Below are positions 18,612-43,270 of a stretch of 52,149 nucleotides of DNA, one piece after another. Source of the DNA: Thermoplasmata archaeon (GTDB lineage Archaea > Thermoplasmatota > Thermoplasmata > Thermoplasmatales > Thermoplasmataceae); the NCBI GenBank assembly GCA_021799185.1, contig JAJZAW010000001.1, positions 1-52,149 on the forward strand, written 5' to 3'. The notes under the pieces were generated by a model that worked only from the letters and a program-made list of their open reading frames with translations, did no database searches and was not told the origin of the DNA. The position numbers and the translations under genes are program-made. The first letter of the stretch is position 1. The number at the start of each line of letters is the position of its first letter.

Positions 18612-18653
18612 TGCAAATCGATAGAGATTAATAGTGTACAAAAATGCAATTTA

Positions 18654-21781: not shown

Positions 21782-21910
21782 ATATGTGGCGGGTGCGATT
21801 TCCTGAATATCCTGTCCATGGGTTCCATAATGGCTTCCACAATATCCTGCACAGTGCCGTGCAGTTCAGGTATGGAAAGCTCGTATCCAGGCAGCGTCTC
21901 CCGCGACCTG

Positions 21911-22570: not shown

Positions 22571-22673
22571 TGCCCCATATACTGAATGGCATCAGTCTCT
22601 CTGCGTTATGGCGTTTGGATAAACATCCCATGCCAGAAAAACGTAAATACCGCAATCCAATGTTTTCACAGCA

Positions 22674-24764: not shown

Positions 24765-25135
24765 GATACCACTGAGAATTAAACCGATCTGAATATATAC
24801 GGGTTTGCCTGTGCTGAAAAACCTGTGTGAAATGATTGGAAAAAGCAGCATCGTATGCGTATTTACCTTTCCGTAACTCATGCTTGTTTAATTCAGCTGA
24901 TACGGGTGAATCACAGGCCCTCCTGCAATGGTGCCCTATGCTGCATGGGTTCCGCCAGTTGCGGGTTAAGAAAAACCGCCCGGCCCGATTTCAACTGCAG
25001 CTAGCCCCGTGTGACCCTCTGCGAGCTTGCAGCAGAATACCGGGCTGTAAACGGCAATGCTGGCAACAGGCAAGGGATAAAATATCCATGTGCCGAATAG
25101 ATAAAAATAGGTAATGGTTGAAGATTCTTAAAAGT

Positions 25136-26995
25136 TCATTGCGAGAAATCCACTGACAGTTCCTTCATGACCTCAGTGGAAGGCTTCCCGTCAGCATCAA
25201 TGCCAACTTCCTGAAGGTATTCATCAACCATGGCACGATAGTCCACGGTAACGCCGGCAGTTGGCCCTGCCTTGAGTGGCGGCTCGCCAACCATTCTGGA
25301 AGGCGGGGCAATCTTTCTTGGATTGATGCCCTCTCTGTAGTTAAAAAGATGCCTAAGCAGCTGTATCCTCTTTCCCATGGCCATAATCTCATCCTCGGAC
25401 ACATCCCATCCCATGATGGACTTGAACAGCTTGTAGTATGGATAGGTATTCGGCCATACTGAAGTTGAAAAGAGGCACATCCCGGTTGCGTTCAGCACCT
25501 GAGCACCATAGACAGACAGCGCCTGCATCCTCCCCTTTCCATGGTATGAGTACCTGTTGATCTTCTCCCTGGGGTAACTGTACTTGAATGGCAGCGTCAT
25601 TGTTCCCCCTTCGTCAAACCCGAGCCCGCCTGCGGTATGCCTTCCTGGCGTAGGATCTGCAATATATGTTGTGGCGAGGCTTGGAAGAAGCCTGGGATCG
25701 TGCATTGGAAGATCCTGGCCTCCAACATGCATTGCGAACTTCTCACTGCCCTTGCCGAACTTTTGCGCAGCATATTTCGCTCCCATTCCAAGTACCGCGC
25801 CTATGCCCTCGCCTCTGCCAATCATTTCTGTGAGCTTTACCATTGCATCCGCGTCTCCGAAGCCAATCCTGAAACCCACATCCTTCTCGGTTATTATGCC
25901 TCTTTCGAAGCATTCGTTTGCGAAGGCTATGACCGCACCAACTGAGATTATGTCCATTCCCGCCCTGTTGCACATCTCAAATGCCATGGCCATGGCGTCC
26001 AGATCGGTGTTAAGATTAAGCCCCCCAAAGGAGCCGGTCCCCTCATATTCAAGCCTGTGCCCCTGGATCTCGCCAAAACGCGTCTTCCTTCTAACATGAC
26101 CGCCACACGCAAGTGTGCACTGAGCGCACCCATAGGACTTCAGCTTATCCTTAGCGATCTCCTCGCCGCTTATTTTTCTGGCGTTATCCGCACCATAATC
26201 TATTATGCCCACTCCTGCCCAGTTCTTTATGGGAGTGTCCCCATTGAGGTGGGAGGATTCTGTGCCTGCGGTTGTGCCGTAAAGCTGCCACGGTCTTGCA
26301 AGATCTATGTTCTTCCGGAATTCTATCTGAATCTCCTTTATGGTCTCCATGAGCATTGCCTGGTCGAAGGGCTTGAATGTGGGTTTGCCCCTGACTATGA
26401 GCCCCTTCAGCCTCTTTGATCCCATAACTGCTCCAATCCCGGACCGCCCTGCTGCCCTGCCATAATCATTCATGAGGGAAGCAACGAGCAGTTTTTTCTC
26501 CCCCGGAACGCCTATAACAAGTGCCTGCCCCTTTGGCTCTATCTTCCTGAGTTCATCCTCTGTCTCATACGCATCCTTGCCCCAGAGATTTGAGGCATCT
26601 TCTATGGATGCTGCCCCATCAACGATCTTGAGGTAAACCGGCTTCGGCGAAATGCCCCGGACAAATACGGCATCATAGCCTGAATTCTTCAGTTCAGGGC
26701 CGAACTTTCCACCGCAGTCTGCATCCCCCCATCCTCCGGTCAGTGGAGATTTTGCCACCACCTGGAATCTTCCGCCAAGGGGCACGGAATGGCTGTTGAA
26801 TATTCCTGTTGTGATGCCCAGTATGTTTTCCTCGCCCAGTGGATCTGCCCCGGGTTTCATGTCTCTGTTCAGTATGTAAGCTCCAAGACCGTATCCAGTC
26901 AGGTATTTTCTGTATATTTCTTCAGGAATTTTTTCTTCCCTTATGCTGCCCTTTGACAGGTCAACATGCAGAATCCTTCCATTAACGCCGTACAT
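25136..26995 (-). CDS. AOR-family tungsten/molybdenum oxidoreductase paralog
   Basis: 619-aa product with the N-terminus MYGVNGRILHVDLSKG, the Fe-S motif GCAQCTLACGG, and AOR-like pterin-binding blocks. Confidence 0.9.
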   Translation of the reverse strand: MYGVNGRILHVDLSKGSIREEKIPEEIYRKYLTGYGLGAYILNRDMKPGADPLGEENILGITTGIFNSHSVPLGGRFQVVAKSPLTGGWGDADCGGKFGPELKNSGYDAVFVRGISPKPVYLKIVDGAASIEDASNLWGKDAYETEDELRKIEPKGQALVIGVPGEKKLLVASLMNDYGRAAGRSGIGAVMGSKRLKGLIVRGKPTFKPFDQAMLMETIKEIQIEFRKNIDLARPWQLYGTTAGTESSHLNGDTPIKNWAGVGIIDYGADNARKISGEEIAKDKLKSYGCAQCTLACGGHVRRKTRFGEIQGHRLEYEGTGSFGGLNLNTDLDAMAMAFEMCNRAGMDIISVGAVIAFANECFERGIITEKDVGFRIGFGDADAMVKLTEMIGRGEGIGAVLGMGAKYAAQKFGKGSEKFAMHVGGQDLPMHDPRLLPSLATTYIADPTPGRHTAGGLGFDEGGTMTLPFKYSYPREKINRYSYHGKGRMQALSVYGAQVLNATGMCLFSTSVWPNTYPYYKLFKSIMGWDVSEDEIMAMGKRIQLLRHLFNYREGINPRKIAPPSRMVGEPPLKAGPTAGVTVDYRAMVDEYLQEVGIDADGKPSTEVMKELSVDFSQ

Positions 26996-27214
26996 ACATT
27001 TACCATGGTATCTTCCTATTAGAGGTTTATCTCATGGGGCTCTGGCAGTGAAAATCTCTCAGCTTTCCATAAAACAGCCCGGATCAAGCAATGGATAAGG
27101 CCGAAGGCAGAATACAGGCTGAATTAAATGCATGAGCGCACTGGATCACCCTTGCCCATTTCTGCGCACTTTTACTCGCGATATTTCTTATAACTTTTGT
27201 TAATTGATAGAAAC

Positions 27215-28573
27215 ATGTCAATGGTAGGATTTGATAGATTCCTATTTGCCTTCACAATAGGGTCTCACATAATTCTGGTGTCAATGAGTATTGCGCTGAT
27301 TCTTCTGATATCCATACTGGAGTTCCTCTATCTCAGAAACAGGAACAGCTACCATCTGGCCCTCATAAGGCGGCTCAAGAAAGTGTTCGTGATCTCCTTT
27401 GGCGTTGGAACAGCCTCAGGAATAGTGGTGGCGGTTGAACTGATAAATCTGTTTCCAGGTTTTATGACCCTTGTATCAGAGACCGGGATCATAGGGGCAT
27501 TCTACGCAGAGATATTCGCATTTTTCCTTGAGACCATCAGCCTTGTGATCTACGTTTATTTTGAAGGAGTATTCAAATGGAAATATACGAATCTTACCCT
27601 TTCAATTGTTGTTGCTTCCGGGACCCTTCTTTCCGGGGTGTTCATAACAATGGTGAATGCCTGGATGAATACGCCAAATGGTTTCAACATATCTGAATAT
27701 CTTGCGACAGGGAAGGTTACAGGTGTGCTTCCCTGGGCAACCTTTGCAACACCCTCAACCTTTGGTGAGATAGCGCATGTCCTTACGACAACTGTTTTCG
27801 CCGGGGTAATGCTAATCGGTGCATTTTTTGCTTACAAATACCTGAAGACGCGAGATCCAGAGGAGAAGGGGATGTTCAGGTCAATGCTCAGGGTCATCAG
27901 TGGTGTTTCCATCATTGATATCCTGCTTGCGGGGGCTTCCGGATCAAATGAAATGTCAACTCTGCTGCAGTATCAGCCATTAAAATATGCTGCCATGGAC
28001 CTTAATCCGACACCTGGAACCGGCTTCTCAGAGAGGCTGTTCGGATACATTTACAATGGGCATATACTGGATTCCATACAGATTCCAGGTCTGCAGGCTT
28101 TGCTGGCTAAACTGGAGACAGGAATAACGGCACTTCCAGGCCTATCGCAGTATCCTGTAAGCGACTGGCCCCCGTTGATTATCCATACTACATTTGATAT
28201 TATGGTGGTTGGAGGGCTTTTCCTCGGGCTCTTTCTCTTCATTACATTCCTTTTCTACGTGTTCAGGAAGGATTTTGTCAGAAACAGGTTCATGATGTAT
28301 TTCCAGATATTCTTCGGTTTCTTCGCTCTCCTGGTTTATGAAATCGGATGGGTAACGGACGAGGTGGGAAGGCAGCCTTGGATTGTATATAACGTGATGA
28401 AGGTATATCAGGCTGCAAACTATTCCACAGGACTTCTGGTTCCAGGATACTTCATCATAGCCTTCTACCTGGTACTCATACCGGCAACGTTCTACTTCTT
28501 TGCCAGGGTATTCAACTCCAATCCCGCCAGGGAAGACATGAAACCGGCAGCGGAAGGGGGTGTTAACTATTAA
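27215..28573 (+). CDS. cydA: Cytochrome bd-type quinol oxidase subunit I
   Basis: Polytopic protein with the CydA signature EVGRQPWIVY and an N-terminus resembling CydA (RFLFAFTIGSHIILV). The ATG at 27215 is preferred over the TTG at 27197. Confidence 0.88.
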   Translation: MSMVGFDRFLFAFTIGSHIILVSMSIALILLISILEFLYLRNRNSYHLALIRRLKKVFVISFGVGTASGIVVAVELINLFPGFMTLVSETGIIGAFYAEIFAFFLETISLVIYVYFEGVFKWKYTNLTLSIVVASGTLLSGVFITMVNAWMNTPNGFNISEYLATGKVTGVLPWATFATPSTFGEIAHVLTTTVFAGVMLIGAFFAYKYLKTRDPEEKGMFRSMLRVISGVSIIDILLAGASGSNEMSTLLQYQPLKYAAMDLNPTPGTGFSERLFGYIYNGHILDSIQIPGLQALLAKLETGITALPGLSQYPVSDWPPLIIHTTFDIMVVGGLFLGLFLFITFLFYVFRKDFVRNRFMMYFQIFFGFFALLVYEIGWVTDEVGRQPWIVYNVMKVYQAANYSTGLLVPGYFIIAFYLVLIPATFYFFARVFNSNPAREDMKPAAEGGVNY

Positions 28574-29522
28574 CATTTTATTTGGCATCAATTATGCAGT
28601 TTTTGCAGTTTTTGCTGTGCTTGTGATCACTGAAATGATGGGCAGCGTCCTGATGCTTGTTGCATGGGATTCAGTCAAGGGAAAGGTGCTCGACTATGTT
28701 GTTCCAGTATGGGAAGTGACAGGCACTTTTGGAGCTTTCTGGGTAGTGGCTTCTGACTTTGCCTATCCACGAATTCTAATACCACTTGCAAGTATATTCT
28801 CGGCAGCCATTGCCATATTCCTCATACTGTTCGTAGCCAGGAATTCTACCATAGTGTTCGCTGAGTTTATAAAAAAGAGAGGCTGGCTTGACGAAAAGAA
28901 GCTATACACAGGATATTCACTCTCAACACTGCTTCTGGGCCTGGTTGTACTGGTTATAATAACAGGAATCATAGGAGGGAATGGCATTGATTTCAGAAAC
29001 CTGACGTTCAGTGTATCCTCATGGGCTGGAAACGCAACCTCATGGCTCTTCATAATCGGCGCTCTTCTTATGGCCATAGGCCTTGCTCCGGTGTTTTATG
29101 ATCTGGCGCCTCTCAAAAAGCTGGTATTTCCATTCACCATTGCGGGTCTCGTGGTTTCGGTAGTTTCACTGTACCTGTTCAGGCATGGCTCACTTCCATT
29201 CCTTGTAGCCATACCCATCATCCTGGCGCTTCTCGTTCCTGTGCTGTACTACCTTCCAAGCGCAGTGAAGATCGTAACAAACAAGGTATTCTTCATAGCA
29301 TTGGTTTCGGCTGACATTTTTTCGCTGGAATTCATGGTTTATCCCACAGCATTTGGTGGAAACATTAACGTGGACAGCTTGATTTCAAGCGGCCCAATGG
29401 CATCAGCCTACGTTGCAATCACTGTGGTGGGGCTTGTTATTCTTGCTGTGCTAATTGCACTTTACTCCATTGCGGTGCATAGAAGGTCAGCTATGGCCAG
29501 AAAAGCAGTGAGTTCACCTTGA
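28560..29522 (+). CDS. cydB: Cytochrome bd-type oxidase subunit II (divergent archaeal form)
   Basis: 320-aa, roughly 8-TM protein with a GTG start that overlaps the cydA end by 14 nt. The assignment rests on position and topology, not on a motif. Confidence 0.7.
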   Translation: MLTINILFGINYAVFAVFAVLVITEMMGSVLMLVAWDSVKGKVLDYVVPVWEVTGTFGAFWVVASDFAYPRILIPLASIFSAAIAIFLILFVARNSTIVFAEFIKKRGWLDEKKLYTGYSLSTLLLGLVVLVIITGIIGGNGIDFRNLTFSVSSWAGNATSWLFIIGALLMAIGLAPVFYDLAPLKKLVFPFTIAGLVVSVVSLYLFRHGSLPFLVAIPIILALLVPVLYYLPSAVKIVTNKVFFIALVSADIFSLEFMVYPTAFGGNINVDSLISSGPMASAYVAITVVGLVILAVLIALYSIAVHRRSAMARKAVSSP

Positions 29523-30599: not shown

Positions 30600-31235
30600 T
30601 CAATTCTGTTTCAAATATGACGATATTATCTTTTTTTCTGCCCGCCTGAGAATTTCTGCAAGCGTAACATAAGAAACGTTCAGCCTCTTGGAAAGCCCTT
30701 CAAGGTTAATCTTTTTTGGATAATCAAAAAATCCAAGGTCAAGAGCAGTTCTAACGACAAATTCCTGTCTTGATGTTATCTCTTTTTTCCTGCTCAGGTT
30801 CTGTTTCTTAACAAGTTTAAATTTCACGCCATCGGCTTCGAGCCTCTCCAGAAATCCCGAAACTGTATCCTCGTCGGGTGACAGCCAGCGCATTATCACG
30901 TCTCCATTTCTGTTAGTGTGTGCGTCCATTAGGAATATGTCCCAGTCAGGCATTGTTTTGCACACAGCACACTTGTCAGCTTCAACTATGGCGGTTGTGT
31001 GGCTCTCATCGATCCTTACCATGCTGTTTTTATGCTCCCCAAGAAGCTTGTGCATTTCCATCTGCGAGTCCCTGGCTGAATCAGGAGGGATAAAAAAATC
31101 AATCAGGTCCTTAACGCCTTCTTCACTCTTACGTATATCCCTGATCTTAATGATTGCTGAATGCTTTTCAACAATGGCTTTTATCCATGTCAAGGGGGAT
31201 TCAAATTCAAGTTCAGCCTCTATCAAGGGTACCAC
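30600..31235 (-). CDS. HTH_10 (bacterio-opsin-activator-type) transcriptional regulator
   Basis: The 211-aa product has a C-terminal block, TSRQEFVVRTALDLGFFDYPKKINLEGLSKRLNVSYVTLAEILRRAEKKI, that matches the Bat/HTH_10 pattern. It is divergently oriented to the nar operon. Confidence 0.8.
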   Translation of the reverse strand: MVPLIEAELEFESPLTWIKAIVEKHSAIIKIRDIRKSEEGVKDLIDFFIPPDSARDSQMEMHKLLGEHKNSMVRIDESHTTAIVEADKCAVCKTMPDWDIFLMDAHTNRNGDVIMRWLSPDEDTVSGFLERLEADGVKFKLVKKQNLSRKKEITSRQEFVVRTALDLGFFDYPKKINLEGLSKRLNVSYVTLAEILRRAEKKIISSYLKQN

Positions 31236-31644: not shown

Positions 31645-31902
31645 ATGTCTAATCCTGTGAGTTCTAGGCAGGATTTGGAACCAGATCTGAAGGATCTCCT
31701 TTACGTCATTGAAATGAGGTTTGGTCCCGTTGAATCCCATATTTTGGACAAGATTTTGTCTCTGAGTGAGCCATCAATAATTAACAGGCTTATTCTCGTT
31801 GCCGCCAACTGCAATTCTATTAAAACGCTGGAGGAGGAAATCCAGGGAGGCGACTTATTCAAAATAGCCGGGAGAAGATATGACCCGCTGTCTGGTGAGT
31901 GA
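31645..31902 (+). CDS. Small ORF (85 aa) abutting narG; coding status uncertain
   Basis: Its stop (TGA 31900-31902) is directly followed by the narG ATG. The segment LLYVIEMRFGPVESHILDKILSLSEPSIINRL.. loosely recalls the DUF4351 pattern (RFG..........L....L..L). Confidence 0.4.
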   Translation: MSNPVSSRQDLEPDLKDLLYVIEMRFGPVESHILDKILSLSEPSIINRLILVAANCNSIKTLEEEIQGGDLFKIAGRRYDPLSGE

Positions 31903-34900
31903 ATGACTGAAACTATTAAGGAATCAGTGAAGGAAAAAACAAAAACAAAACAGGGCAACAAATGGCTGCATTATGATCCAAGACCAAGAGACTGGGAGAA
32001 AATTTATCGCAACAGATGGGACTACAGCAATGTGGTGAGGTCCACACATGGGGTCAACTGCACGGGCTCCTGCAGCTGGAAGGTCTATGTAAAGGATGGG
32101 ATAATAACCTGGGAAACACAGGCAACTGATTATCCATCAAACGGGTATAACTTTCCCGAATATGAGCCGAGAGGGTGCCCCAGGGGCGCTACATTTTCAT
32201 GGTATACCTACAGCCCCATGAGGGTGAAATACCCCTATATAAGAGGCGAACTGCTGAAACTGTGGAGGCAGGAGTTAAATGAGTCGGATAATCCAGTTGA
32301 AGCATGGGAAAAACTGACATCCGACCCGGAAAAAAGGCAAAAATACGTCCATGCCAGGGGAAAAGGTGGACTTGTGCGAAGCTCCTGGGAGGAGGTATCC
32401 CGGATAATATCTGCATCCCTTTTATCCACCATCAGGAAATATGGGCCGGATAGAATAGCTGGTTTCACTCCGATTCCCGCGATGTCCATGGTAAGCTACG
32501 CCTCCGGTTCGAGATTTTTATCCCTTATTGGGGGAAGCATGCTCAGTTTCTATGACTGGTACGCCGATCTGCCGCCTGCATCTCCCCAGATATGGGGTGA
32601 ACAGACAGATGTACCGGAAAGTGCTGACTGGTACAATTCGAAGTATTTCATAATATGGGGCACCAACCTTCCTATGACAAGGACCCCTGATGCCCATTTC
32701 ATGGTGGAGGCAAGGTACAATGGTACTAAGGTCGTTGGGGTGAGCCCCGATTACGCTGAATACATAAAATTCGCTGATGTATGGCTTCCAGCAAGGGCTG
32801 GGACAGATGCCGCCCTGGCACTTTCAATGGCCCATGTTATTGTAAAGGAATTTTACGTTGACAGGCAGGAGCCTTATTTTATAGATTATTCTAAAAAATA
32901 CACTGATCTTCCGTTCCTTGTGATACTTGACAGGGATGGAGATTCCTATGTATCTGGCAGATTTCTGCGTGCCAGTGATATGGGTTCCACCGAAGACAAA
33001 GCCCAGTGGAAAACTGTCATGTGGGATGCTAAGACCGGCAGACCGGCCATACCCATGGGAAGCGTCGGATACAGGTGGGATGGCTCATCCAAATGGAATC
33101 TGAAGCTTGAAACGGGAGATGGGCATCAAATAGAGCCTGCTCTGACATTTCTTGGAATAGAAGATATGATTGTGAAGGTCCAGTTTCCAGACTTCACAGA
33201 AGAGACAGGGAAGATTTCCTTCAGAAATATACCCGCCAAGACGCTGAAATTAAAAGATGGCAGAGAGATAGTAATAACAACAGTATTCGATCTCTTTGCA
33301 GGCAATCTGGGTGTGCCACGAAATATTGACGGAGACAAGGCGCTTAATTATGATTCCAACACTGCCTACACTCCCGCATGGCAGGAAAGGATAACGGGTG
33401 TAGACAGAAAGCTCGCGATCAAAGTTGCCAGGGAATTTGCCGAAAATGCAGCCCTGACGCACGGAAAATCAATGATTGCAATGGGTGCCGGAACCAATCA
33501 CTGGTATAATAGTGATGTCATCTACAGGAGCATAATAAGCCTGGTGCTTCTTACAGGGAGTCAGGGCGTTAATGGCGGAGGATGGGCACATTATGTTGGC
33601 CAGGAAAAGGTAAGGCCTTTCGAAGGCTGGAATAATATAGCCTTTGCTTCTGACTGGTATCCTGCTTCAAGATTGCAGAACGGAACATCATTTTTCTATC
33701 TTTCTTCTGATCAGTTCAGGTTTGAACAGAAAACTAACCCGCTTGCATTGACACCCTTCAAGGGCGAGTATACCGACAAACATCCTGCCGATCTTATTTC
33801 AATGGCGGTAAGGCTGGGCTGGCAGTCGAGCTATCCGCAATTCAACAGGAACCCGCTGGATCTCGCCCGGCAGGCTCTCTCCAAGGGCTGCAGCACGGAC
33901 GCCGAGATATCGGATTATATCATATCAGAGGTTATGAAAGGTGACCTCAGATTTTCTGTTGAAGAGCCAGATAACCCTGTGAATTTCCCCAGAATTCTTT
34001 TCAACTGGAGATCGAACCTTCTGGGCACACAGGGTAAGGGACATGAATACATCATAAAGTATCTGCTCGGAACTGGCGGCCATCCACTGGGCAATCCGGA
34101 GGAAAGCTGGAAACCTGAAGATATCAATGTCCCTGAAAATATACCGGAAGGGAAACTGGACCTTGTTGTAGATCTTGATTTTAGGATGTCAGGCTCTGCT
34201 CTATATTCAGATATTGTGCTTCCATCGGCCACGTGGTATGAGAAATTTGACATAAGCAGCACGGACATGCACCCTTTTATTCACCCCTTCAACGCCGCAA
34301 TTTCTCCACCGTGGGAAACCATGTCGGACTGGGAATCCTTCAAGTACATTGCAAAGGCATTTTCCAGCATGGCAGAAAAGTATCTCCCGGAAGCAGATGA
34401 CCTCATGGTCAACTCCATGCAACATGATACTCCTGGCGAAATATCCCAGCCTTTTGGTGTCATAGATGACTTCAAGAAAACGGGAAAGAAGCCGGCGGGT
34501 GGAGTTAACTTTCCTCTTGTGACCATCCTGAAGAGAGACTATGTCCATATATACGACATGATGGTTACGCTTGGCCCCCTTGAAAGGGAAAGGATTGCTG
34601 CAAAAGGTGTCGTCATCAGCGGTAAAAATGCTTATGAAGAACTTTTGAGGAAAGTGCCACAGTACAGCAAGCCGGGACCGGCGAGAGACCTTGCCATGAT
34701 GCTGGATGAAAGGCAGGTCGCAGAGTCAATAATGACAATATCAGGCGCCACAAACGGGAAGCGGGCCAAAGAAGAATGGGGCTTTATGGAAAAAAGGACC
34801 GGCTTGCAACTTGTGGACTCGTTCCACGGAGATGAAGAAATAAGCTATAGTTTTGATGACCTGGTTGCGCAACCCAGGAGGGCAATGACATCCCCAGTAT

Positions 34901-35577
34901 GGAGCGGCACTGAAACTGGGGGCCGCCAGTACTCACCATTTGTTGTGAACGTTGAGCATGATATACCGTGGAGGACCCTCACAGGTCGTCAGGCTTTTTA
35001 CCTGGACCATGAACTTATGAGACAGATGGCGGAGGCTCTGCCGGTTTATAAGCCGCCACTTGGAATTGCATTCTATACCAATCCTGAGGACGGAAGAAGG
35101 CTTGCTGAGGGCAAATCCATTACGGTGAGATATTTAACACCACATCAGAAATGGGGGATTCATTCCACATATTCGGATACGCCCACAATGCTGACGCTAT
35201 CCAGGGGTGGACAGCATATATGGATAAATGAGGAAGACGCCCGGGAGATAGATGTAAAGGACAACGACTGGGTGGAGATTTACAACATGAACGGTGTAAT
35301 CGTGGCGCGGGCCGTAACGACATACAGAATCCCGAGAGGAGACGCATTCATGTATCATGGCCAGGACAGGACAATAGGCGTTCCGGGCAGCAGCATAACA
35401 AATGATAGAGGGGGTAACAACAACAGCATGACGCGAATCATTCCAAAGGCCACCCATCTGATCGGTGGCTATGGGCAGCTATCATACTCCTTTAATTATT
35501 ATGGCCCTACAGGACACCAGCGTGATGCATATGCTTTCATAAGGAAGCTGAAGGAGGTGAAATGGCTTGAAGGTTAA
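31903..35577 (+). CDS. narG: Respiratory nitrate reductase alpha subunit, bacterial membrane-bound nNar type
   Basis: The 1224-aa product is near-colinear by eye with E. coli NarG. Shared blocks include VRSTHGVNCTGSCSWKVYVKDG (FS0), PRGCPRGA, FYDWYADLPPASPQIWGEQTDVPESADWYNS, SNLLGTQGKGHEY and TPHQKWGIHSTYSD. There is no twin-arginine leader. Confidence 0.97.
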   Translation: MTETIKESVKEKTKTKQGNKWLHYDPRPRDWEKIYRNRWDYSNVVRSTHGVNCTGSCSWKVYVKDGIITWETQATDYPSNGYNFPEYEPRGCPRGATFSWYTYSPMRVKYPYIRGELLKLWRQELNESDNPVEAWEKLTSDPEKRQKYVHARGKGGLVRSSWEEVSRIISASLLSTIRKYGPDRIAGFTPIPAMSMVSYASGSRFLSLIGGSMLSFYDWYADLPPASPQIWGEQTDVPESADWYNSKYFIIWGTNLPMTRTPDAHFMVEARYNGTKVVGVSPDYAEYIKFADVWLPARAGTDAALALSMAHVIVKEFYVDRQEPYFIDYSKKYTDLPFLVILDRDGDSYVSGRFLRASDMGSTEDKAQWKTVMWDAKTGRPAIPMGSVGYRWDGSSKWNLKLETGDGHQIEPALTFLGIEDMIVKVQFPDFTEETGKISFRNIPAKTLKLKDGREIVITTVFDLFAGNLGVPRNIDGDKALNYDSNTAYTPAWQERITGVDRKLAIKVAREFAENAALTHGKSMIAMGAGTNHWYNSDVIYRSIISLVLLTGSQGVNGGGWAHYVGQEKVRPFEGWNNIAFASDWYPASRLQNGTSFFYLSSDQFRFEQKTNPLALTPFKGEYTDKHPADLISMAVRLGWQSSYPQFNRNPLDLARQALSKGCSTDAEISDYIISEVMKGDLRFSVEEPDNPVNFPRILFNWRSNLLGTQGKGHEYIIKYLLGTGGHPLGNPEESWKPEDINVPENIPEGKLDLVVDLDFRMSGSALYSDIVLPSATWYEKFDISSTDMHPFIHPFNAAISPPWETMSDWESFKYIAKAFSSMAEKYLPEADDLMVNSMQHDTPGEISQPFGVIDDFKKTGKKPAGGVNFPLVTILKRDYVHIYDMMVTLGPLERERIAAKGVVISGKNAYEELLRKVPQYSKPGPARDLAMMLDERQVAESIMTISGATNGKRAKEEWGFMEKRTGLQLVDSFHGDEEISYSFDDLVAQPRRAMTSPVWSGTETGGRQYSPFVVNVEHDIPWRTLTGRQAFYLDHELMRQMAEALPVYKPPLGIAFYTNPEDGRRLAEGKSITVRYLTPHQKWGIHSTYSDTPTMLTLSRGGQHIWINEEDAREIDVKDNDWVEIYNMNGVIVARAVTTYRIPRGDAFMYHGQDRTIGVPGSSITNDRGGNNNSMTRIIPKATHLIGGYGQLSYSFNYYGPTGHQRDAYAFIRKLKEVKWLEG
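35551..35560 (+). promoter_or_regulatory. Strong Shine-Dalgarno (AAGGAGGTGA) for narH
   Basis: It lies 7 nt upstream of the TTG start at 35567, inside the narG 3' end. Confidence 0.6.
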
Positions 35578-37060
35578 GGCACAGATAGCCATGGTCATGA
35601 ATCTGGACAAATGCATTGGATGCCATACCTGCAGCGTAACCTGCAAGAACGTATGGACCAACAGGCCAGGTGCTGAATACATGTGGTTCAACAATGTGGA
35701 AACAAGGCCCGGGCCAGGCTATCCAACAAAGTGGGAGGATCAGGGAAAATATAAGGGGGGATGGGTGCTTCACAATGGCAAATTGCGCCTGAGGTCAGGA
35801 GGATCGCTTCAGAGGCTTCTGAATATATTTTACAACCCTGATCTTCCAACAATTGATGATTACTACGAGCCGTGGAGCTACACATATTCCAACCTTATTG
35901 AAAGCAAGAGCAAGGAGCATCAGCCCGTTGTGCGGCCATATTCCCTCATATCGGGTGAATTCATGGATAAACCAGTGTGGGGCCCCAACTGGAACGATGA
36001 CCTGGCCGGCGGCGAGGAAACATCATCAATGGACCCGAATATTGCGAATATGCAGGAACATATCAAATTTCAGTATGAAAATTCATTTATGATGTACATG
36101 CCAAGAATATGCGAACACTGCCTGAATCCTGCCTGCGTTGCGGCCTGCCCAGCCGGCGCAATATACAAGAGGGAAGAGGACGGAATCGTGCTGGTGGATC
36201 AGGATTCCTGCCGTGGATGGAGGTTCTGTGTTACGGCATGCCCATACAAGAAGGTATATTATAACTGGAATACGCACAAGTCAGAAAAGTGCACATTCTG
36301 CTATCCAAGAATTGAAGCAGGGCTCCCCACTGTATGCTCTGAAACATGCGTGGGCAGAATCAGATATCTTGGTCCCATATTCTACGATTCAGACAGGATA
36401 GAGGAAATGGCTTCAAAAAAAGACCCAAAGGATCTGTATGAATCTCAACTGTCAATATTCCTGGACCCGTTTGACAGTGAAGTCATAGAAAACGCAAGAA
36501 AAGAAGGGATCAATGATTCCTGGATCAGGGCGGCACAGGATTCTCCTGTTTATAAAATGGCTGTAAAGTGGAAGGTTGCTCTCCCTCTTCATCCAGAATT
36601 CCGAACACTTCCCATGGTGTGGTATGTCCCTCCCCTCAGCCCAATTTTGCATACCATTGAGGACGAATCCAGCATTCCAGGCGACGCTTACATACCACTT
36701 GTGGATTCCATGAGAATTCCAATGGAATATCTGGCATCAATACTGTCTGCAGGCGATACAGGCGTTATCAGAAGTGTTTTGCTCAAGATGTGCACCATGC
36801 GAACATACATGAGAAACCTTAATCTGAAAGGGTCTGGAAACTCAGAACTTCTTAAGGAAACTGGATTAGCGGAGAATGATGTGGTTGAAATGGCCAGGAT
36901 GTTTGGCGTTTCAAAATATGAAGAAAGATTTGTAATACCTACCGGAAGGCGGGAAGCTGTGGATGACGCATCGTTCATTCAGGGGTCATGCAGCCTTGAA
37001 GGCATTGCGCCGGAAGAGGGACTGGTAGTCCCAAAGCTTAAGGGTGGTGGCAAATTTTGA
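35567..37060 (+). CDS. narH: Respiratory nitrate reductase beta subunit (4 Fe-S clusters)
   Basis: The 497-aa product shares blocks with E. coli NarH as I remember it, some with one or two substitutions: NLDKCIGCHTCSVTCKNVWT, CEHCLNPACVA, AIYKREEDGIVL, KSEKC.FCYPRIEAG.PTVCSETCVGRIRYLG and RTLPMVWYVPPLSPI. It has a TTG start and overlaps narG by 11 nt. Confidence 0.97.
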   Translation: MKVKAQIAMVMNLDKCIGCHTCSVTCKNVWTNRPGAEYMWFNNVETRPGPGYPTKWEDQGKYKGGWVLHNGKLRLRSGGSLQRLLNIFYNPDLPTIDDYYEPWSYTYSNLIESKSKEHQPVVRPYSLISGEFMDKPVWGPNWNDDLAGGEETSSMDPNIANMQEHIKFQYENSFMMYMPRICEHCLNPACVAACPAGAIYKREEDGIVLVDQDSCRGWRFCVTACPYKKVYYNWNTHKSEKCTFCYPRIEAGLPTVCSETCVGRIRYLGPIFYDSDRIEEMASKKDPKDLYESQLSIFLDPFDSEVIENARKEGINDSWIRAAQDSPVYKMAVKWKVALPLHPEFRTLPMVWYVPPLSPILHTIEDESSIPGDAYIPLVDSMRIPMEYLASILSAGDTGVIRSVLLKMCTMRTYMRNLNLKGSGNSELLKETGLAENDVVEMARMFGVSKYEERFVIPTGRREAVDDASFIQGSCSLEGIAPEEGLVVPKLKGGGKF

Positions 37061-37635
37061 AGAGTTTTGAACCTGATCTGCTGAATGCATGTGCCATAAT
37101 CCTTGATTACCCTGATTATAATACCGCTGAAGATGAAATTTCAGCCATAAACGAGCAGTACCATGGAGAAAGCGATTCAGTGGCTGTTTTTCTGGATTAC
37201 CTTAAGGCAAAGGACATAATTGATCTGCAATCGGAATATGTTGATACATTTGATCTTTCCGGAACCCCTCTTTTTCTCACAGCCTGGGAATTCGGTGACA
37301 GCAGGAATCGTGGGCCTGAACTGATGAAGCTCAAGAAGATGATCGAATCCAACGGCTTCAGGATAAGAAAAGGCCAGATTCCGGATTATATCCCGCTTCT
37401 CCTTTCGTTCATTTCTGAAATTGGGCCTGAAAAAATCCCGCAGGATTTTGAATCCAGGCTCCACAGATATTTTGAAACTCTCAGTAACAAGCTCCGCAAC
37501 ACCATTTACGGTTCAATCTTCCTAATGCTGTCGGATATTTTTCAGGAGATGGTGCCACTGCCCGAGATAAGTCCCGAGAAAGCCGATTCGGGGGAAATGC
37601 CATTTCCATTGAGGTATAACGGGGAGGAGTACTGA
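37057..37635 (+). CDS. narJ: Nitrate reductase assembly chaperone
   Basis: 192-aa acidic protein in the narJ position with a NarJ-like core (LQSEYVDTFD, PDYIPLLLSFIS). It has a TTG start that overlaps the narH stop. Confidence 0.85.
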   Translation: MKSFEPDLLNACAIILDYPDYNTAEDEISAINEQYHGESDSVAVFLDYLKAKDIIDLQSEYVDTFDLSGTPLFLTAWEFGDSRNRGPELMKLKKMIESNGFRIRKGQIPDYIPLLLSFISEIGPEKIPQDFESRLHRYFETLSNKLRNTIYGSIFLMLSDIFQEMVPLPEISPEKADSGEMPFPLRYNGEEY

Positions 37636-38372
37636 TGGTAAACTTCCTTTCACAGCTTGCCTGGGTAATATACCCTTATCTTTCATTCTCGCTGATGGTA
37701 ATTGGCGTTGTTTACAGATTCAGAAACAGGCCGCTTACAATAACATCCAAGTCCAGTGAGCTCCTGGAGAGGCGAAATCTTGCCTGGGGCTCAAGGGCAT
37801 TTCACTATGGAATTATATTCGTTATACTGGGCCATTTCGCAGGCCTTTTTGTGCCCTTATCATTCCTGCACAGCATTGGAGTTTCGGATTATCTGAACTT
37901 CATTGTTTCTGTTCTTGCAGGTGGCGTATTTGGCATCATGGCATGGATTGGGCTTGCCATACTCATAGGAAGGAGGCTGTTAATTAAGAGAGTGCGTGTT
38001 ACATCCAATTTCGCAGATACATATGTTCTCATCCTTCTTCTAGTCATAATGTCCTTTGGCCTCTCCCTGACCCTGGGATATGATCCTCTATACGGATCAC
38101 TCGCATACAACACTGCGATGTCAAATATAAGCCAGTGGATCACGGGTTTCTTTTTATTTCATCCTGATGCAGCATATATGAGCACAGTTCCACTTATCTT
38201 CAAGATCCACATACTGATTTCATTTCTGCTTTATCCCTCCATACCATTCACGAGACTCACGCACATATTCACAACGCCTGTTCGTTATCTGTACAGGAAG
38301 CCTATTGTCTTCAGAAGCATAGAAGGTCAGAATACCAACAGTGAAGCAATGAATACGCTGAGATTCAAATGA
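37635..38372 (+). CDS. narI: Nitrate reductase gamma subunit (di-heme b, quinol-oxidising)
   Basis: 245-aa, 5-TM product with the paired heme-ligand histidines (AFHYGIIFVILGHF, and KIHILISF..RLTHIF). Its ATG shares an A with the narJ TGA. Confidence 0.9.
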   Translation: MVNFLSQLAWVIYPYLSFSLMVIGVVYRFRNRPLTITSKSSELLERRNLAWGSRAFHYGIIFVILGHFAGLFVPLSFLHSIGVSDYLNFIVSVLAGGVFGIMAWIGLAILIGRRLLIKRVRVTSNFADTYVLILLLVIMSFGLSLTLGYDPLYGSLAYNTAMSNISQWITGFFLFHPDAAYMSTVPLIFKIHILISFLLYPSIPFTRLTHIFTTPVRYLYRKPIVFRSIEGQNTNSEAMNTLRFK

Positions 38373-39472
38373 CAGCAGAACATGTGTTCAGGAAACAGTG
38401 GAATGGCGTTGCTGGGGATCTGCTTCCCGCATACTTCGCCATGGTTATGGCTACCGGCATAGTGTCCATAGCTTCCACACTGTACGGGCTGATCCTATTT
38501 GCCCATGTTCTGTTTTATATTGATCTGTCTGCTTATATAATCCTATGGATATTTTCTGCTGAAAGGATACTGTTTTTCAGAAACAGATATGCTGAAGATC
38601 TGCGGGATCACGCCAGGGGGCCCGGATTTTTCACCGTCGTAGCCGGGACGAATACCCTGGGTTCTGTTTTTGTGGTGGTAATGAAGGATGATACAATTGC
38701 ATTTTTCCTGTGGATAATTGGCTTCCTGCTCTGGCTATTCTATCAGTATTATATATTTACAGCGCTATCAATTAGCAAAACAAAGCCTCTGGTTGAGAAA
38801 GGCATAAATGGCACATGGCTGGTGGCAACAGTCTCCACGCAATCGGTATCTGTGCTGGCCGCTCAGCTATCCCAGCTGCACCACTGGATGTTCCTTATTT
38901 CAATAATCATGTACTTTATTGGCTGGATGACCTATGTCCTGGTAATGTCTCTTATCAACTACCGTCTCCTTTTCCTTAAGCTCGATACCGATGATATCAT
39001 GGGCCCGTACTGGATAAACATGGGCGCAACCGCCATCACCACACTTGCAGGGGCACTCATTCTGATTGATGGCAGCACCCCTGCATTTTCGTCAATGCTT
39101 GGGCTTTTCAGGCCATTCATAGCCGGTGCCACATTCCTTATGTGGGCATATGGCAGCTGGTGGATACCGTGGCTTGTAATAATAGGCATATGGAAGTATT
39201 CTGTTGGTGGAGGCAAGATTGTAAGCTACGATCCGCTGTTTTGGGGCGGCGTATTTCCCATGGGCATGTATACTGTCTCAACATACATGCTGGTGAAAGC
39301 CGCTTCGCTGAATGAGCTGTCATTCATACCCCGCTACTTTCTGTATGTAGCCATTATAGCCTGGATATATGAGTTTCTTGGGCTGCTGATCCGGATTGCA
39401 GAAAGGCTATCCGGCAAATGGAATTTCAAACAGAAAACAAAAGAGGGAACTGCGAATACGGATGTGAAATAG
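38369..39472 (+). CDS. TDT family (TehA/Mae1/SLAC1-like) anion channel/transporter
   Basis: 367-aa, roughly 10-TM product with family-like blocks (YFAMVMATGIVS, GPGFFTVVAGTN, GPYWINMGATAI, FWGGVFPMGMY). It has an ATGA overlap with the narI stop. Confidence 0.8.
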   Translation: MTAEHVFRKQWNGVAGDLLPAYFAMVMATGIVSIASTLYGLILFAHVLFYIDLSAYIILWIFSAERILFFRNRYAEDLRDHARGPGFFTVVAGTNTLGSVFVVVMKDDTIAFFLWIIGFLLWLFYQYYIFTALSISKTKPLVEKGINGTWLVATVSTQSVSVLAAQLSQLHHWMFLISIIMYFIGWMTYVLVMSLINYRLLFLKLDTDDIMGPYWINMGATAITTLAGALILIDGSTPAFSSMLGLFRPFIAGATFLMWAYGSWWIPWLVIIGIWKYSVGGGKIVSYDPLFWGGVFPMGMYTVSTYMLVKAASLNELSFIPRYFLYVAIIAWIYEFLGLLIRIAERLSGKWNFKQKTKEGTANTDVK

Positions 39473-39895
39473 ATGACAGGACCAGCCTTAAAAAAAGCTG
39501 ACTCGCATCGTATGATACATTCAGCAGCCAGGGGAGAGATAGAGGAAGCAACCATGTTCCTGGAAAGATTTCATGAGAACAGTGAAGATGTGAACAATCT
39601 TGCCTTGCAGGCAGTTGTGGAGCTGTGGAAATCCAAGGTTATAGCACATGCGGAAGAAGAAGAAAACACCCTATACCGGGATATTGAAAAAATTGATATT
39701 AAATTTAATCCGGTAATTGAAAGGCTTTCAAGAGATCATGAGGTGCTGCGAAAACTCTGCGGCATGCTTGAATCCGAAATGTCGAAAAAGGATTACATGC
39801 ATGCACTGCAAATTGCCCATGCACTCATGCTTCTGAATGACATTCATTCAGGGGATGAAATATCATTGATAAGGGAAGTAGAGAATAACCTCTAA
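39473..39895 (+). CDS. Hemerythrin-like (HHE cation-binding) domain protein
   Basis: 140-aa helical protein with His/Glu spacing typical of hemerythrin-like domains (HAEEEENTLY, DHEVL, H..DE). Its ATG directly follows the TDT TAG. An internal Met start is possible. Confidence 0.65.
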   Translation: MTGPALKKADSHRMIHSAARGEIEEATMFLERFHENSEDVNNLALQAVVELWKSKVIAHAEEEENTLYRDIEKIDIKFNPVIERLSRDHEVLRKLCGMLESEMSKKDYMHALQIAHALMLLNDIHSGDEISLIREVENNL

Positions 39896-40026: not shown

Positions 40027-40680
40027 ATGCACCAGACTTATGTTTTTATGGACGCAGAAAGTTCAGTAAGAAAAACCATTGATGCAAGAGAGATAGAACC
40101 ACGAGTAAGGCACGAAGTTATCTTCGGCGAGTTTAAAAAATTGAATGAGGGCGAAATGCTTGACGTCATTGTGGATCATGAACCGGATCATCTTCTCATG
40201 CATATGGAACATGTGGGCCTTCCTGTGGATGCGGAAAGATATTCCGCGGAACAGCTGGAAAACGGGCTATGGGTCGGCCATTTCGTTAAATCAGCAAAAA
40301 AGGATGCTGCGGAGACCACGGTCGCCACGGACTATGAGCGAAGCCGGTCATATAACGAAAGCAGATTTTCTGCAGTACCTGTGTTTGCCAATGACAAATA
40401 TGGAGTTCTATTGACTTATTTAAAAGCTGGTCAGTTCATACCGGTGCATTCGCCGGGTGTGGATCTGGTATTCCAGGTTTTCAAGGGCGTTGGAACAGCC
40501 ACTGTGGGCGATAAAGAAGTAAAACTGAAGCCCGGGAGCCTCATAATAGTTCCGCGCGGGCAGAAAAGAGGCATAAAGGCAACCACAGATATGGAAGGCG
40601 TACACATTGTGGTTCCATTTCCAGCAGAAGGAGATCATGAAGAGGTTGAGAAAAAACTGGCATCGGGGAAATACGCGTGA
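40027..40680 (+). CDS. DUF2249 - cupin fusion protein
   Basis: The N-terminal roughly 95 aa fit the DUF2249 pattern (IDAREIEPRVRHEVIFGEFKKLNEGEMLDVIVDHEP..L). The C-terminal roughly 90 aa fit a cupin_2 barrel (GQFIPVHSPGVDLVFQVFKGVGTATVGD..GSLIIVPRG). Confidence 0.7.
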   Translation: MHQTYVFMDAESSVRKTIDAREIEPRVRHEVIFGEFKKLNEGEMLDVIVDHEPDHLLMHMEHVGLPVDAERYSAEQLENGLWVGHFVKSAKKDAAETTVATDYERSRSYNESRFSAVPVFANDKYGVLLTYLKAGQFIPVHSPGVDLVFQVFKGVGTATVGDKEVKLKPGSLIIVPRGQKRGIKATTDMEGVHIVVPFPAEGDHEEVEKKLASGKYA

Positions 40681-40721: not shown

Positions 40722-41195
40722 TCATTTTTCAATTGTGCTATTTTTTCTTTTGTAGGTTCCAGGGATTGCGCCGAATGCCACGTTTAAGCGGTTCCAGGAA
40801 TTTATGGCCACCACGGCTGCGGTTAATGCCACGAGGCCCTCCTGGCCGAATTCCTCTGCCATTTCTCTGTAGAGTTCATCATCAACGCTGTGCTGTGATA
40901 TATTTGTGATGGTTTCACACCATTCCAGGGCTAGCTTCTCTCTGCGGCTGAACTGTGGGGCTTCCCTCCATGCACTGACAAGAAACAGCCTCTGGGCAGT
41001 TTCACCGTTTGCCAGAGCGTCCTTGGTATGCATATCTATGCACCAGCCACACCTGTTTATCTGCGACGCCCTTAGTTTTATAAGTTCCAATAGAGAATCC
41101 TCAAGCCCGGAAGAATGTACATAAGATTCCAGCCCCAGAAGTGATCTGTAAAGTTCAGGGGAGGTTTCGGCGTAATTTAATCTGGTAGCGTCCAT
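40722..41195 (-). CDS. Carboxymuconolactone decarboxylase / AhpD-like peroxidase family protein
   Basis: 157-aa product with the AhpD-type CxxC motif in context (RASQINRCGWCIDMHTKDA). Confidence 0.85.
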   Translation of the reverse strand: MDATRLNYAETSPELYRSLLGLESYVHSSGLEDSLLELIKLRASQINRCGWCIDMHTKDALANGETAQRLFLVSAWREAPQFSRREKLALEWCETITNISQHSVDDELYREMAEEFGQEGLVALTAAVVAINSWNRLNVAFGAIPGTYKRKNSTIEK

Positions 41196-42160: not shown

Positions 42161-43270
42161 ATGGCTAAGCTGGCAGAACAGCACGGGTTTCTGGAAAATA
42201 ACAGTCTTGGATCATATATTTCAGTTCATCCCGTTCTGATGGTGTTTGGAGTTATTGGGGGGCTTTTAATTGCGGAAAAAATCGAGATAATGAACAGATT
42301 CCTTATTTTCAGGCGAGTTCCGGTTTCATATCCCATACTGGTAACAATTCTTACCGGTATTGTATCGCTCTCCCTTGGATACGCTGTTGGGCTGGCAGTT
42401 TTGAGATATGCAGGAACAGGACTGATTGCGACAGCAGGCCTTCTGTTTATGTGGTTTATGGTTTCCAGGCGAAATCCAGGAAACGTCTGGGTCAAATTAA
42501 TTATGGGGTCTGCACTTGCGGCATTTTCCATTGGTTCAATTGCCGAATCCATGATATCTGCCACAAAATCCCCGGCAGTTGCATTGCTGCTGTTGTCATT
42601 CCCGATCATATATATCCTTGGCGAGCGCATCGAACTTGGACTCATGCGGAATATCAGCAAGAGCACAATGAAACTGCTTGTGTTTTCGTCAGCTGTTATC
42701 CCATTTATATTATTTGCCTCCAGCCTTTATGGCAGAACACTTGCAGGGCGCATTCTCTTTGACGCTTCCATTGTTTTTGTCCTCATCATGGTCATTACAT
42801 CCATAAAATTCGATCCGTCAACAAGGAAAATGAAAGTTTCCGGGAAGCTTCAGTCCTTTATGCAGTCGGGTATAATCTCATCATACATATGGCTTTTAAC
42901 CGGGATATTCCTTTACCTTATGCAGGTAAATGTGGAAAGGGGTTTTATGGACCCGGCAACTCACTCAATTGCCCTGGGATTTATAGGATTATTCATAATT
43001 GCACACAGCCCAATTATCTTTCCGCTAACCCTGAAATTGAAAGCAGACACCAGCCGTGTGACAAAATTTCCCATATACGCAATGAATATTGCCGTGTTTC
43101 TGCGTGTAGGCGGAGATCTGATATCAATGAAGTACGGAGTTGGGAATCTGATGGCCTATTCTTCCGTTTATATGCTGATAATAGCTATAGTCCTCTTCTT
43201 CTTCAATATATTAAGGATACGGCAGTCACCGGGAACTGAGTCAAAAGGGATGGCAAGAAATATTACGTGA
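42161..43270 (+). CDS. Polytopic membrane protein (369 aa, about 10 TM), weakly NnrS-like
   Basis: His-containing TM motifs VHPVLMVFGVIGG and THSIALGFIGLFIIAHS. The frame is open for 54 codons upstream of the ATG and encodes a further hydrophobic helix there, with no start codon. Confidence 0.6.
   Translation: MAKLAEQHGFLENNSLGSYISVHPVLMVFGVIGGLLIAEKIEIMNRFLIFRRVPVSYPILVTILTGIVSLSLGYAVGLAVLRYAGTGLIATAGLLFMWFMVSRRNPGNVWVKLIMGSALAAFSIGSIAESMISATKSPAVALLLLSFPIIYILGERIELGLMRNISKSTMKLLVFSSAVIPFILFASSLYGRTLAGRILFDASIVFVLIMVITSIKFDPSTRKMKVSGKLQSFMQSGIISSYIWLLTGIFLYLMQVNVERGFMDPATHSIALGFIGLFIIAHSPIIFPLTLKLKADTSRVTKFPIYAMNIAVFLRVGGDLISMKYGVGNLMAYSSVYMLIIAIVLFFFNILRIRQSPGTESKGMARNIT

Follow-up and report, generated by a model that had tools for sequence, protein, structure and literature searches.

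A SLAC1-Fold Membrane Protein Encoded in a Bacterial-Type nar Operon of an Archaeon: A Candidate Nitrate/Nitrite Route with Conserved Linkage to Nitrate Reduction

Organization of the nar Operon

This work concerns a gene for a TDT/SLAC1-family membrane protein (hereafter, the TDT protein) located in a nar operon of a Thermoplasmataceae archaeon (assembly GCA_021799185.1, contig JAJZAW010000001.1, positions 1 to 52,149; this whole stretch of 52,149 nucleotides is referred to as the window). A listing of open reading frames (ORFs) and profile searches of the 52-kb window reveal seven co-directional genes with zero intergenic space at 31645-39895, in the order small ORF, narG, narH, narJ, narI, TDT/SLAC1-family gene, and hemerythrin-like gene (Table 1). 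The functional link between the TDT protein and the nitrate reductase Nar is strong, and the clade to which this protein belongs probably represents an unrecognised membrane route for nitrate and/or nitrite.

The junctions between these genes were read base by base. The TGA stop codon of the small ORF abuts the ATG of narG, while narG and narH overlap by 11 nucleotides, with GGAGGTGA upstream of the TTG start codon of narH. The sequence TTGA is common to the narH stop and the narJ start, TGATG is common to narJ and narI, ATGA is common to the narI stop and the TDT start, and TAGATG joins the TDT stop to the ATG of the hemerythrin-like gene. Coupling at every junction from narG to the hemerythrin-like gene had already been described in an earlier interpretation made from the DNA letters (the sequence-only reading), and all junctions are as stated there; the coupled chain, however, begins one gene earlier, at 31645, with an ORF of 85 amino acids. 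From the small ORF to the hemerythrin-like gene, the locus is one translationally coupled operon.

The ratio of nonsynonymous to synonymous substitution rates (dN/dS), calculated against a relative with 89% identity (locus L001; related loci are labeled in this way throughout), is 0.10 for the TDT gene, 0.11 for the hemerythrin-like gene, and 0.29 for the small ORF. Such low values indicate that all three are real genes under purifying selection. The small ORF has zero family matches in Pfam and NCBIfam. ORFs of 81-91 amino acids occupy its position in three other Thermoplasmatales lineages and are not found there in Conexivisphaerales; its identity to the same-position ORFs is 80% in L001 and 42-43% in L002 and L005. 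Its product may be a Nar accessory protein that has so far escaped recognition. Rfam and tRNA scans yielded nothing relevant to the operon.

Table 1. Features of the nar operon and its surroundings (positions in the window; GA, Pfam gathering threshold)
Feature	Position	Strand	Evidence and remarks
HTH_10-family transcription regulator	30600..31235	-	PF04967 63.5 bits; divergent from operon
Small ORF, 85 amino acids, first gene of coupled chain	31645..31902	+	Conserved position, dN/dS 0.29
narG, catalytic molybdenum-bis(pyranopterin guanine dinucleotide) (Mo-bisPGD) subunit, cytoplasmic type	31903..35577	+	TIGR01580 1664 bits vs cutoff 1084
narH, iron-sulfur (Fe-S) subunit, TTG start	35567..37060	+	TIGR01660 795 bits vs cutoff 524, aligned from residue 1
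narJ, assembly chaperone, TTG start	37057..37635	+	TIGR00684 70.8 bits vs cutoff 59
narI, di-heme b membrane anchor, quinol oxidase	37635..38372	+	PF02665 234 bits; TIGR00351 157 vs 106
TDT/SLAC1-fold protein with 10 transmembrane (TM) helices, 367 amino acids	38369..39472	+	PF03595 137 bits vs GA 27.9
Hemerythrin-like protein, 140 amino acids	39473..39895	+	PF01814 22 bits, GA 25.3; ligand motif kept
DUF2249-cupin protein, conserved neighbor	40027..40680	+	PF10006, PF07883; homologues in L001, L002, L005, L013
AhpD/CMD-family protein, conserved neighbor	40722..41195	-	PF02627, TIGR00778; homologues in L001, L005, L008
Polytopic membrane protein, weak NnrS similarity	42161..43270	+	PF05940 19.8 bits, below GA 28

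Type of Nitrate Reductase

NarG, NarH, NarJ, and NarI all reach the cutoffs of their curated equivalog models. NarG carries the sequence HGVNCTGSCSW from residue 49, in which H49-x3-C-x3-C constitutes the FS0 motif, and no twin arginine (RR) occurs in its residues 1-48. NarI contains His57/67 and His192/210, with the two pairs spaced by 10 and 18 residues, a spacing that we take to be that of the heme ligands of Escherichia coli NarI. The equivalog scores, the lack of a twin-arginine translocation (Tat) motif, and the four NarI histidines agree with the initial view of a cytoplasm-facing, bacterial-type Nar with a di-heme NarI, and on these sequence features, the enzyme is classified as a quinol:nitrate oxidoreductase with a predicted cytoplasmic active site. 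With its active site predicted on the cytoplasmic side, NarGHI would require both the import of nitrate and the removal of nitrite from the cell.

The system resembles E. coli NarGHJI in its matches to the same equivalog models, the FS0 HxxxCxxxC motif, the four NarI histidines, and the absence of a Tat signal. It differs in its host, a Thermoplasmatales archaeon, and in the additional small ORF and hemerythrin-like gene. A further difference concerns transport: E. coli employs the NarK/NarU exchangers of the major facilitator superfamily (MFS), whereas profile searches found no NarK-family gene in the operon, as had been noted from the start, nor in the whole 52-kb window. The MFS genes of the window comprise one sugar porter and one gene of the DHA2 efflux type, and the TDT protein of the operon is not an MFS member and gives no match to the NarK-family model (TIGR00886). 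In several bacteria, narK adjoins nar; in the window, a SLAC1-fold gene holds this nar-adjacent position. A publication retrieved for Thermoplasmatales and narG reports narGH solely in bacterial metagenome-assembled genomes (MAGs) (PMC9326234).

Fold and Family of the TDT Protein

The TDT family, represented by PF03595, is listed as TC 2.A.16 in the Transporter Classification, and the nitrate permeability of the plant SLAC1/SLAH proteins is established. Residues 20-338 of the TDT protein match positions 4-329 of the 331-position PF03595 model. An AlphaFold2 monomer model built on an alignment of the clade (predicted local distance difference test, pLDDT, 91; predicted TM-score, pTM, 0.91) consists of an N-terminal amphipathic helix and 10 TM helices, the number counted in the sequence-only reading. 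When this model was compared with the PDB by Foldseek, the best 24 matches were all HiTehA or Arabidopsis SLAC1/SLAH structures (TM-score 0.56-0.81, identity 10-16%), followed after rank 24 by unrelated designed helical barrels. The SLAC1/TehA fold of the predicted structure can be regarded as secure.

The original designation of the protein as a member of the TehA/SLAC1 family holds at the level of Pfam and fold, but it does not extend to closer kinship. The TDT protein scores 55 bits against TIGR00816, for which the cutoff is 237; a profile of 43 clade members retrieved no TehA or SLAC1 chain from the PDB even at E <= 10; and an hhalign comparison of the clade with E. coli TehA gave a probability of 4%. 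Because no similarity is detectable at the sequence level, the protein is best classified as a full-length Pfam SLAC1 member and not as a TehA orthologue, and because sequence searches found no TehA or SLAC1, the family link rests on structure prediction and Foldseek. Judged by sequence, it belongs to a distinct, widespread prokaryotic clade, which forms a new subfamily beside the members characterised so far. SLAC1 has been described as homologous to bacterial, archaeal, and fungal TDT proteins (PMC3509319).

Across the 43 sequences, 54 positions are invariant, including those of the motif W292-x3-F296-P297 in TM9. In a weak and non-significant local alignment, W292-x3-F296 aligns with W258-x3-F262 of E. 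coli TehA. Residue 262 is presumably the pore-occluding, or gating, phenylalanine of HiTehA, with F450 as its counterpart in SLAC1, so the position of F296-P297 in TM9 is suggestive of a counterpart of this gating residue. In contrast to SLAC1, the TDT protein has no SLAC1-like cytoplasmic regulatory domains, and whereas E. coli tehA is paired with tehB and not with nar, the TDT gene of the window is coupled to nar.

Proteins of this kind carry the database annotation 'tellurite resistance/C4-dicarboxylate transporter', and Mae1, a member of the same superfamily, carries malate (PMC3509319). A carrier of C4-dicarboxylates or other organic acids, which would import electron donors or export end products during anaerobic growth, might be expected on these grounds. 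Nevertheless, this label was taken over from the name of the family, the score against TIGR00816 falls far below its cutoff, and no recurrent genes of dicarboxylate metabolism lie beside TDT, so that we consider such a role highly implausible.

Conserved Linkage of TDT to nar Genes

The order small ORF-narGHJI-TDT-hemerythrin is found in L001 (TDT identity 89%), in L002 (CP060531, Candidatus Scheffleriplasma hospitalis B_DKE; 61%), and in L005-7 (59%). The strain B_DKE is a cultured acidophile (PMC8975820). In Conexivisphaerales (L008) and Nitrososphaeria, the order is narGHJI-TDT-moeA-mobB. The closest TDT relative, with 89% identity, comes from a Thermoplasmataceae MAG, in line with the archaeal host first assumed for the window.

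For a wider view, one genome per GTDB species was scanned with the clade alignment, and the best 80 of at least 591 matches (TDT identity 40-60%) were retained as the relatives considered below. The neighbors of TDT in these 80 loci were identified by tblastn with the Nar proteins of the window and by clustering of neighbor genes; simple ORF calling gives spurious antisense ORFs in high-GC loci (Burkholderiales, L022, L070), and the counts rest on tblastn. The 80 relatives span at least eight phyla. A narG, narH, or narI gene lies within 10 kb of TDT in 30 of them, while far fewer than one such locus in 80 would be expected by chance, according to a rough estimate. In 14 of the 30 nar-linked loci, narI is directly upstream on the same strand, and in two more, an fmdE-like gene alone stands between. 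When NasC-like enzymes and NarK are counted together with Nar, 48 of the 80 loci contain at least one of them.

The placement of TDT varies: it occurs after narI, before narG (L014, L015, L038, L081), or divergent from narK-narIJHG (Ignavibacteriota). When genes stay linked despite such rearrangement, as TDT and nar do here, this is a classic sign of functional coupling. Co-conservation of TDT with nar had been set beforehand as a test of the sequence-only reading, and it was observed in four Thermoplasmatales lineages and Conexivisphaerales, as well as in the 30 relatives with their several gene orders.

The nar-linked loci belong to Chloroflexota, Acidobacteriota, Ignavibacteriota, Bacteroidota, Gamma- and Deltaproteobacteria, Thermoproteota, and Thermoplasmatota. 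This distribution bears on the proposal that TDT is a general anion (chloride) channel serving charge compensation or pH homeostasis in a respiring acidophile, with no specificity for nitrogen oxyanions. Such a role would suit the SLAC1/TehA channel fold, and acidophiles need anion and cation fluxes to hold their reversed membrane potential; however, many neutrophilic bacteria also have members of this clade linked to nar, and a housekeeping channel has no reason for translational coupling to narI. We therefore regard a general anion channel as quite improbable.

In a neighbor-joining tree, the TDT protein of the window belongs to a nine-locus clade in which every locus is nar-linked (9/9); the members come from Thermoplasmatales, Conexivisphaerales/Nitrososphaeria, one Chromatiales, and two Anaerolineales. 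The NarG proteins of these loci are the closest to the window NarG among the 23 loci compared. Close relatives of NarG and TDT in the same loci fit a module that may have moved as a unit. Pairwise distances of NarG and TDT are correlated (Mantel r = 0.47; 0 of 2000 permutations as high), which is no proof of co-transfer, since a shared species phylogeny alone produces such a correlation.

Two further observations concern particular groups. In Anaerolineales and related bacteria (L017, L036, L040, L044, L046, L058, L071), a membrane-anchored c-type cytochrome of ~288 amino acids is encoded immediately upstream of narG, which recalls narC of the Thermus narCGHJIKT operon, and an FmdE-like zinc-ribbon protein (PF02663) is often encoded between narI and TDT or after TDT in loci of this type. 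Brocadia and other Brocadiaceae (L016, L021, L023) possess TDT proteins of 43-45% identity with a NarL-type response regulator nearby, and no Nar, NarK, or NasC-like gene occurs within 10 kb of TDT in these three loci. These relatives could bear on nitrite/nitrate handling in anammox bacteria.

Relationship to NarK

The initial proposal placed TDT at the position of NarK as its replacement. This holds in part. In the clade of the window, TDT stands alone with Nar, but among the relatives as a whole, the two transporters often occur together. NarK-family genes are present in 11 of the 80 loci. When the nar-linked loci were made non-redundant (35 loci), 10 carried a NarK-family gene, and 25 had none in the stretch examined. 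In L010, L093, and L094, a gene for an ActF-NarK fusion is followed by TDT, with a 4-nucleotide overlap in L093 and L094, and in L062, TDT is followed by two NarK genes. TDT and NarK are, in other words, often partners and not substitutes. Their co-occurrence suggests complementary jobs, for example, uptake or exchange by NarK and nitrite exit by TDT.

The fusion protein is of interest in its own right. It is 788 amino acids long, with an N-terminal polytopic segment and a C-terminal NarK-family MFS domain (TIGR00886, 227 bits), and its gene is placed after ActC-, ActD-, and cytochrome c-like genes of an Alternative Complex III-like cluster. The stretches containing the fusion and TDT are L010:7541-11116, L094:2896-6485, and L093:36-2698.

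Precedents

Full-text literature searches turned up neither a report of nitrate or nitrite transport by a prokaryotic TDT protein nor a description of a broad linkage to nar. The statement that this role is not established in prokaryotes is accurate to that extent, yet three partial precedents exist. The nxr cluster of Nitrobacter winogradskyi comprises nxrA-X-B, narJ, nxrC, the narK gene nwi_0779, and, as the closing gene after narK, the TDT gene nwi_0780 (PMC4786786). Both this cluster and the operon of the window are Nar-type, cytoplasm-facing clusters with a TDT-family gene, and nwi_0780 is likened to the window TDT by family name and position. The second precedent comes from yeast, in which Ssu1/Ssu2 export sulfite and also nitrate or nitrite, as cited in two reports (PMC8456426, PMC4635503). 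Ssu1/Ssu2 belong to the same superfamily, are connected with nitrate metabolism, and remove nitrogen oxyanions from the cytoplasm; however, they are eukaryotic, operate in an assimilatory context, and have sulfite as the primary substrate, and the likeness to the window TDT is at the superfamily level. Finally, Rodionov et al. (PMC1274295) assigned a predicted role in nitrite excretion to NsrR-regulated homologues of narK and of a tellurite-resistance gene.

Neighboring Genes and Their Bearing on TDT Function

The last gene of the operon, first identified as hemerythrin, is hemerythrin-like by its ligand residues, although its PF01814 score lies below the gathering threshold. The pattern H...HxxxE...H...HxxxE is present as H59-E63, H89, and H125-E129, and E22, E25, H59, E63, H89, H125, and E129 are invariant in seven Thermoplasmatales paralogues and orthologues. 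The L002 orthologue has a precomputed Pfam match at full confidence, and the gene occupies the same position in L001, L002, and L005. RIC/YtfE/ScdA proteins are di-iron proteins that repair Fe-S centers under nitrosative stress. The window protein has hemerythrin-type di-iron ligands in common with them but is a single-domain protein of 140 amino acids, with neither ScdA_N nor a TIGR03652 match. True RIC/YtfE genes lie beside TDT in 7 of the 80 loci (TIGR03652 249 bits in L024), and other hemerythrin-domain proteins in another seven.

In addition, Thermoplasmatales nar loci contain up to five hemerythrin-domain paralogues (L005:1-1556, 11108-11545, and 14990-15427; L002:2684-3109 and 11141-11542), together with DUF2249-cupin, AhpD/CMD, and weakly NnrS-like genes. 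NnrS is a family linked to the nitric oxide (NO) response, and a faint NnrS match also occurs at a comparable position in L005. These surroundings look like an island for nitrosative stress or O2/NO sensing built around a nitrite-producing enzyme.

Such a setting invites the view of TDT as a detoxifying exporter, a safety valve in the manner of Ssu1 that stands outside respiratory traffic and removes either nitrite only or sulfite, selenite, tellurite, or chlorite produced adventitiously by Nar. E. coli Nar does reduce tellurite. The RIC/YtfE and hemerythrin genes adjoining TDT in 11 of the 80 loci and the stress genes surrounding it in Thermoplasmatales favor this view, and TDT coexists with NarK, which is itself able to handle nitrate/nitrite exchange. 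The prediction for the NsrR regulon, in which a tellurite-resistance homologue would excrete nitrite (PMC1274295), and the primarily sulfite-pumping Ssu1 (PMC8456426, PMC4635503) point in the same direction. On the other hand, translational coupling to narI predicts co-production with Nar and not induction by stress, and in 25 of the 35 nar-linked loci, no other nitrate/nitrite transporter is nearby. For nitrite, moreover, this explanation overlaps with that of a nitrate/nitrite route. Taken as a separate explanation, a detoxifying exporter appears unlikely.

Another recurrent neighborhood of TDT is an operon with a NasC-like molybdenum (Mo) enzyme, which ends in TDT in 19-22 of the 80 loci and is apparently undescribed. 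Its order is QmoC/NarI-like membrane protein (~376 amino acids, with C-terminal Cys motifs), NasC-like Mo enzyme (~740-760 amino acids), Fer4_11 Fe-S protein, Rieske protein, small TM protein (DUF6755), and TDT. It is found at L065:4800-11000, as well as in L009, L029, L042, L049, L052, L053, L060, L086, L090, and others, in Acidobacteriota, Planctomycetota, Gemmatimonadota, Polyangiaceae, and some Chloroflexota.

That TDT lies near both Nar and the NasC-like enzyme, which are unrelated Mo enzymes, would also be expected if TDT took up molybdate or tungstate or otherwise supplied Mo cofactor to the adjacent Mo-bisPGD enzyme. The same holds for its position beside moeA/mobB in L008, in L013, and in 8 of the 80 loci and beside fmdE in seven of the 80. 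In the census, however, the Mo enzymes beside TDT are all nitrate-reductase-like, and no dimethyl sulfoxide reductase, formate dehydrogenase, or comparable enzyme was seen among them. In L093 and L094, TDT is coupled to NarK without an adjacent Mo enzyme. Adjacency to RIC would be left unexplained, and no mod genes were seen. A role in Mo supply consequently receives little credence from us.

Proposed Role of the TDT Protein

The explanation that we prefer, with confidence slightly above an even chance, is that the TDT protein would provide a nitrate/nitrite-conducting anion pathway dedicated to nitrate reduction. This explanation starts from the gene content, the coupling, the fold, and the conserved linkage to nitrate-reduction genes. 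The sequence-only reading had likewise regarded the TDT protein as the route of nitrate import and/or nitrite export; co-conservation with nar and the SLAC1 fold speak for it, whereas the accompanying idea of NarK replacement proved too simple, and conduction is a property that we infer.

We favor as its mechanism a dual-permeant pore, which would pass nitrate as well as nitrite. As Nar turns over, nitrate would flow in and nitrite would flow out through this pore along their respective electrochemical gradients, so that the two ions would be exchanged at a ratio of roughly 1:1 with no need for an antiporter. In extreme acidophiles, the membrane potential is inside-positive. This potential would draw nitrate into the acidophilic cell, and because external nitrite (pKa about 3.3) would be protonated and would decay chemically, the nitrite anion would continue to have a steep gradient toward the outside. 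In neutrophilic relatives, where the potential is inside-negative, the pore would serve chiefly as an outlet for nitrite, in keeping with the frequent pairing of TDT with NarK and RIC. The hemerythrin-like, DUF2249-cupin, AhpD-like, and NnrS-like proteins would most likely handle NO and nitrosative stress arising from cytoplasmic nitrite. As the TDT superfamily includes the carriers Mae1 and Ssu1, the TDT protein may alternatively work in a proton-coupled mode.

Several points weigh against a dedicated nitrate/nitrite pathway. No nitrate-related gene adjoins TDT in some 26-32 of the 80 relatives, which are for the most part Burkholderiales, Brocadia, and Neobacillus. Because the clade has no detectable sequence similarity to TehA or SLAC1, the permeation properties of these proteins are not transferable to it; the substrate, the channel or carrier mode, the direction of transport, and the role of the hemerythrin-like protein are what we infer for this clade. 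In an acidophile, a nitrite pore combined with back-diffusion of HNO2 would amount to a proton leak. The position of TDT beside moeA, mobB, or fmdE is also compatible with a link to the Mo cofactor. As for the NasC-like operon, its Mo enzyme reaches 776 bits against NF047855, below the cutoff of 1100, and all 13 Rieske partners (13/13) carry an RR[DE]F signal-anchor that leads into a hydrophobic helix; RR is absent from the Mo subunits. An RR-bearing Rieske protein with an RR-less Mo subunit is the arrangement of arsenite oxidase and of bc1 Rieske proteins, and the NasC-like complex may face outward, as these sequence motifs suggest. On account of the sub-cutoff Mo subunit and the Rieske motif, this operon was downgraded from clear evidence for cytoplasmic nitrate reduction. 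Its sequence features support a link of TDT to a nitrate-reductase-like Mo enzyme and not specifically to cytoplasmic nitrate reduction.

Nar-type respiration needs nitrate to come in and nitrite to go out, and both current models of this traffic and the prediction of nitrate respiration or nitrite release from genomes rely on NarK-family and FNT proteins. The fold and the idea of nitrate permeation were known; new are the prokaryotic clade, the coupling of its genes to Nar within operons, and its possible role as a third class of respiratory nitrate/nitrite transporter. More broadly, and with somewhat less than even confidence, we propose that the TDT clade forms a third, channel-type class of prokaryotic nitrate/nitrite transporter beside the NarK MFS proteins and FNT/NirC, spread over at least eight phyla. 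It would be the sole transporter of the Nar operon in some lineages, for example, the acidophilic Thermoplasmatales and Conexivisphaerales, and conduction of nitrogen oxyanions would be an old trait of the TDT/SLAC1 proteins, inherited by SLAC1/SLAH and Ssu1.

A widespread SLAC1-fold partner of Nar would stand behind the present tellurite-resistance/C4-dicarboxylate label, its role unrecognised. If true, the proposal changes the nitrite accumulation and nitrosative stress predicted for Chloroflexota, Acidobacteriota, Ignavibacteriota, and acidophilic archaea, explains how an acidophile runs a cytoplasm-facing Nar, and offers a prokaryotic model for the nitrate selectivity of plant SLAC1/SLAH channels. 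It is directly testable, as one carrier of the operon, Candidatus Scheffleriplasma hospitalis B_DKE, is in culture.

Other Features of the Window

The HTH_10-family gene that diverges from the operon also adjoins nar in L001, L008, and L013, and its product is the probable regulator of the nar operon. Just upstream of this regulator gene, at 27197-29522, lies a gene for cytochrome bd oxidase subunit I (PF01654), followed by a polytopic ORF of 320 amino acids without a family match, presumably a divergent subunit II; the pair is also present in L001.

Farther upstream, a DHA2-type MFS gene, moeA, and a moeA fused to a periplasmic-binding-protein-like domain (PF12727) follow one another at 17202-21781, and two tandem aldehyde:ferredoxin oxidoreductase genes are located at 22950-26995 on the minus strand. 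The region 17202-26995 is thus a neighborhood rich in genes related to Mo/tungsten cofactors. Genes for a Ta1207-family protein, Cdc6, and a family-B DNA polymerase are likewise present in the window, which fits a Thermoplasmataceae archaeon.

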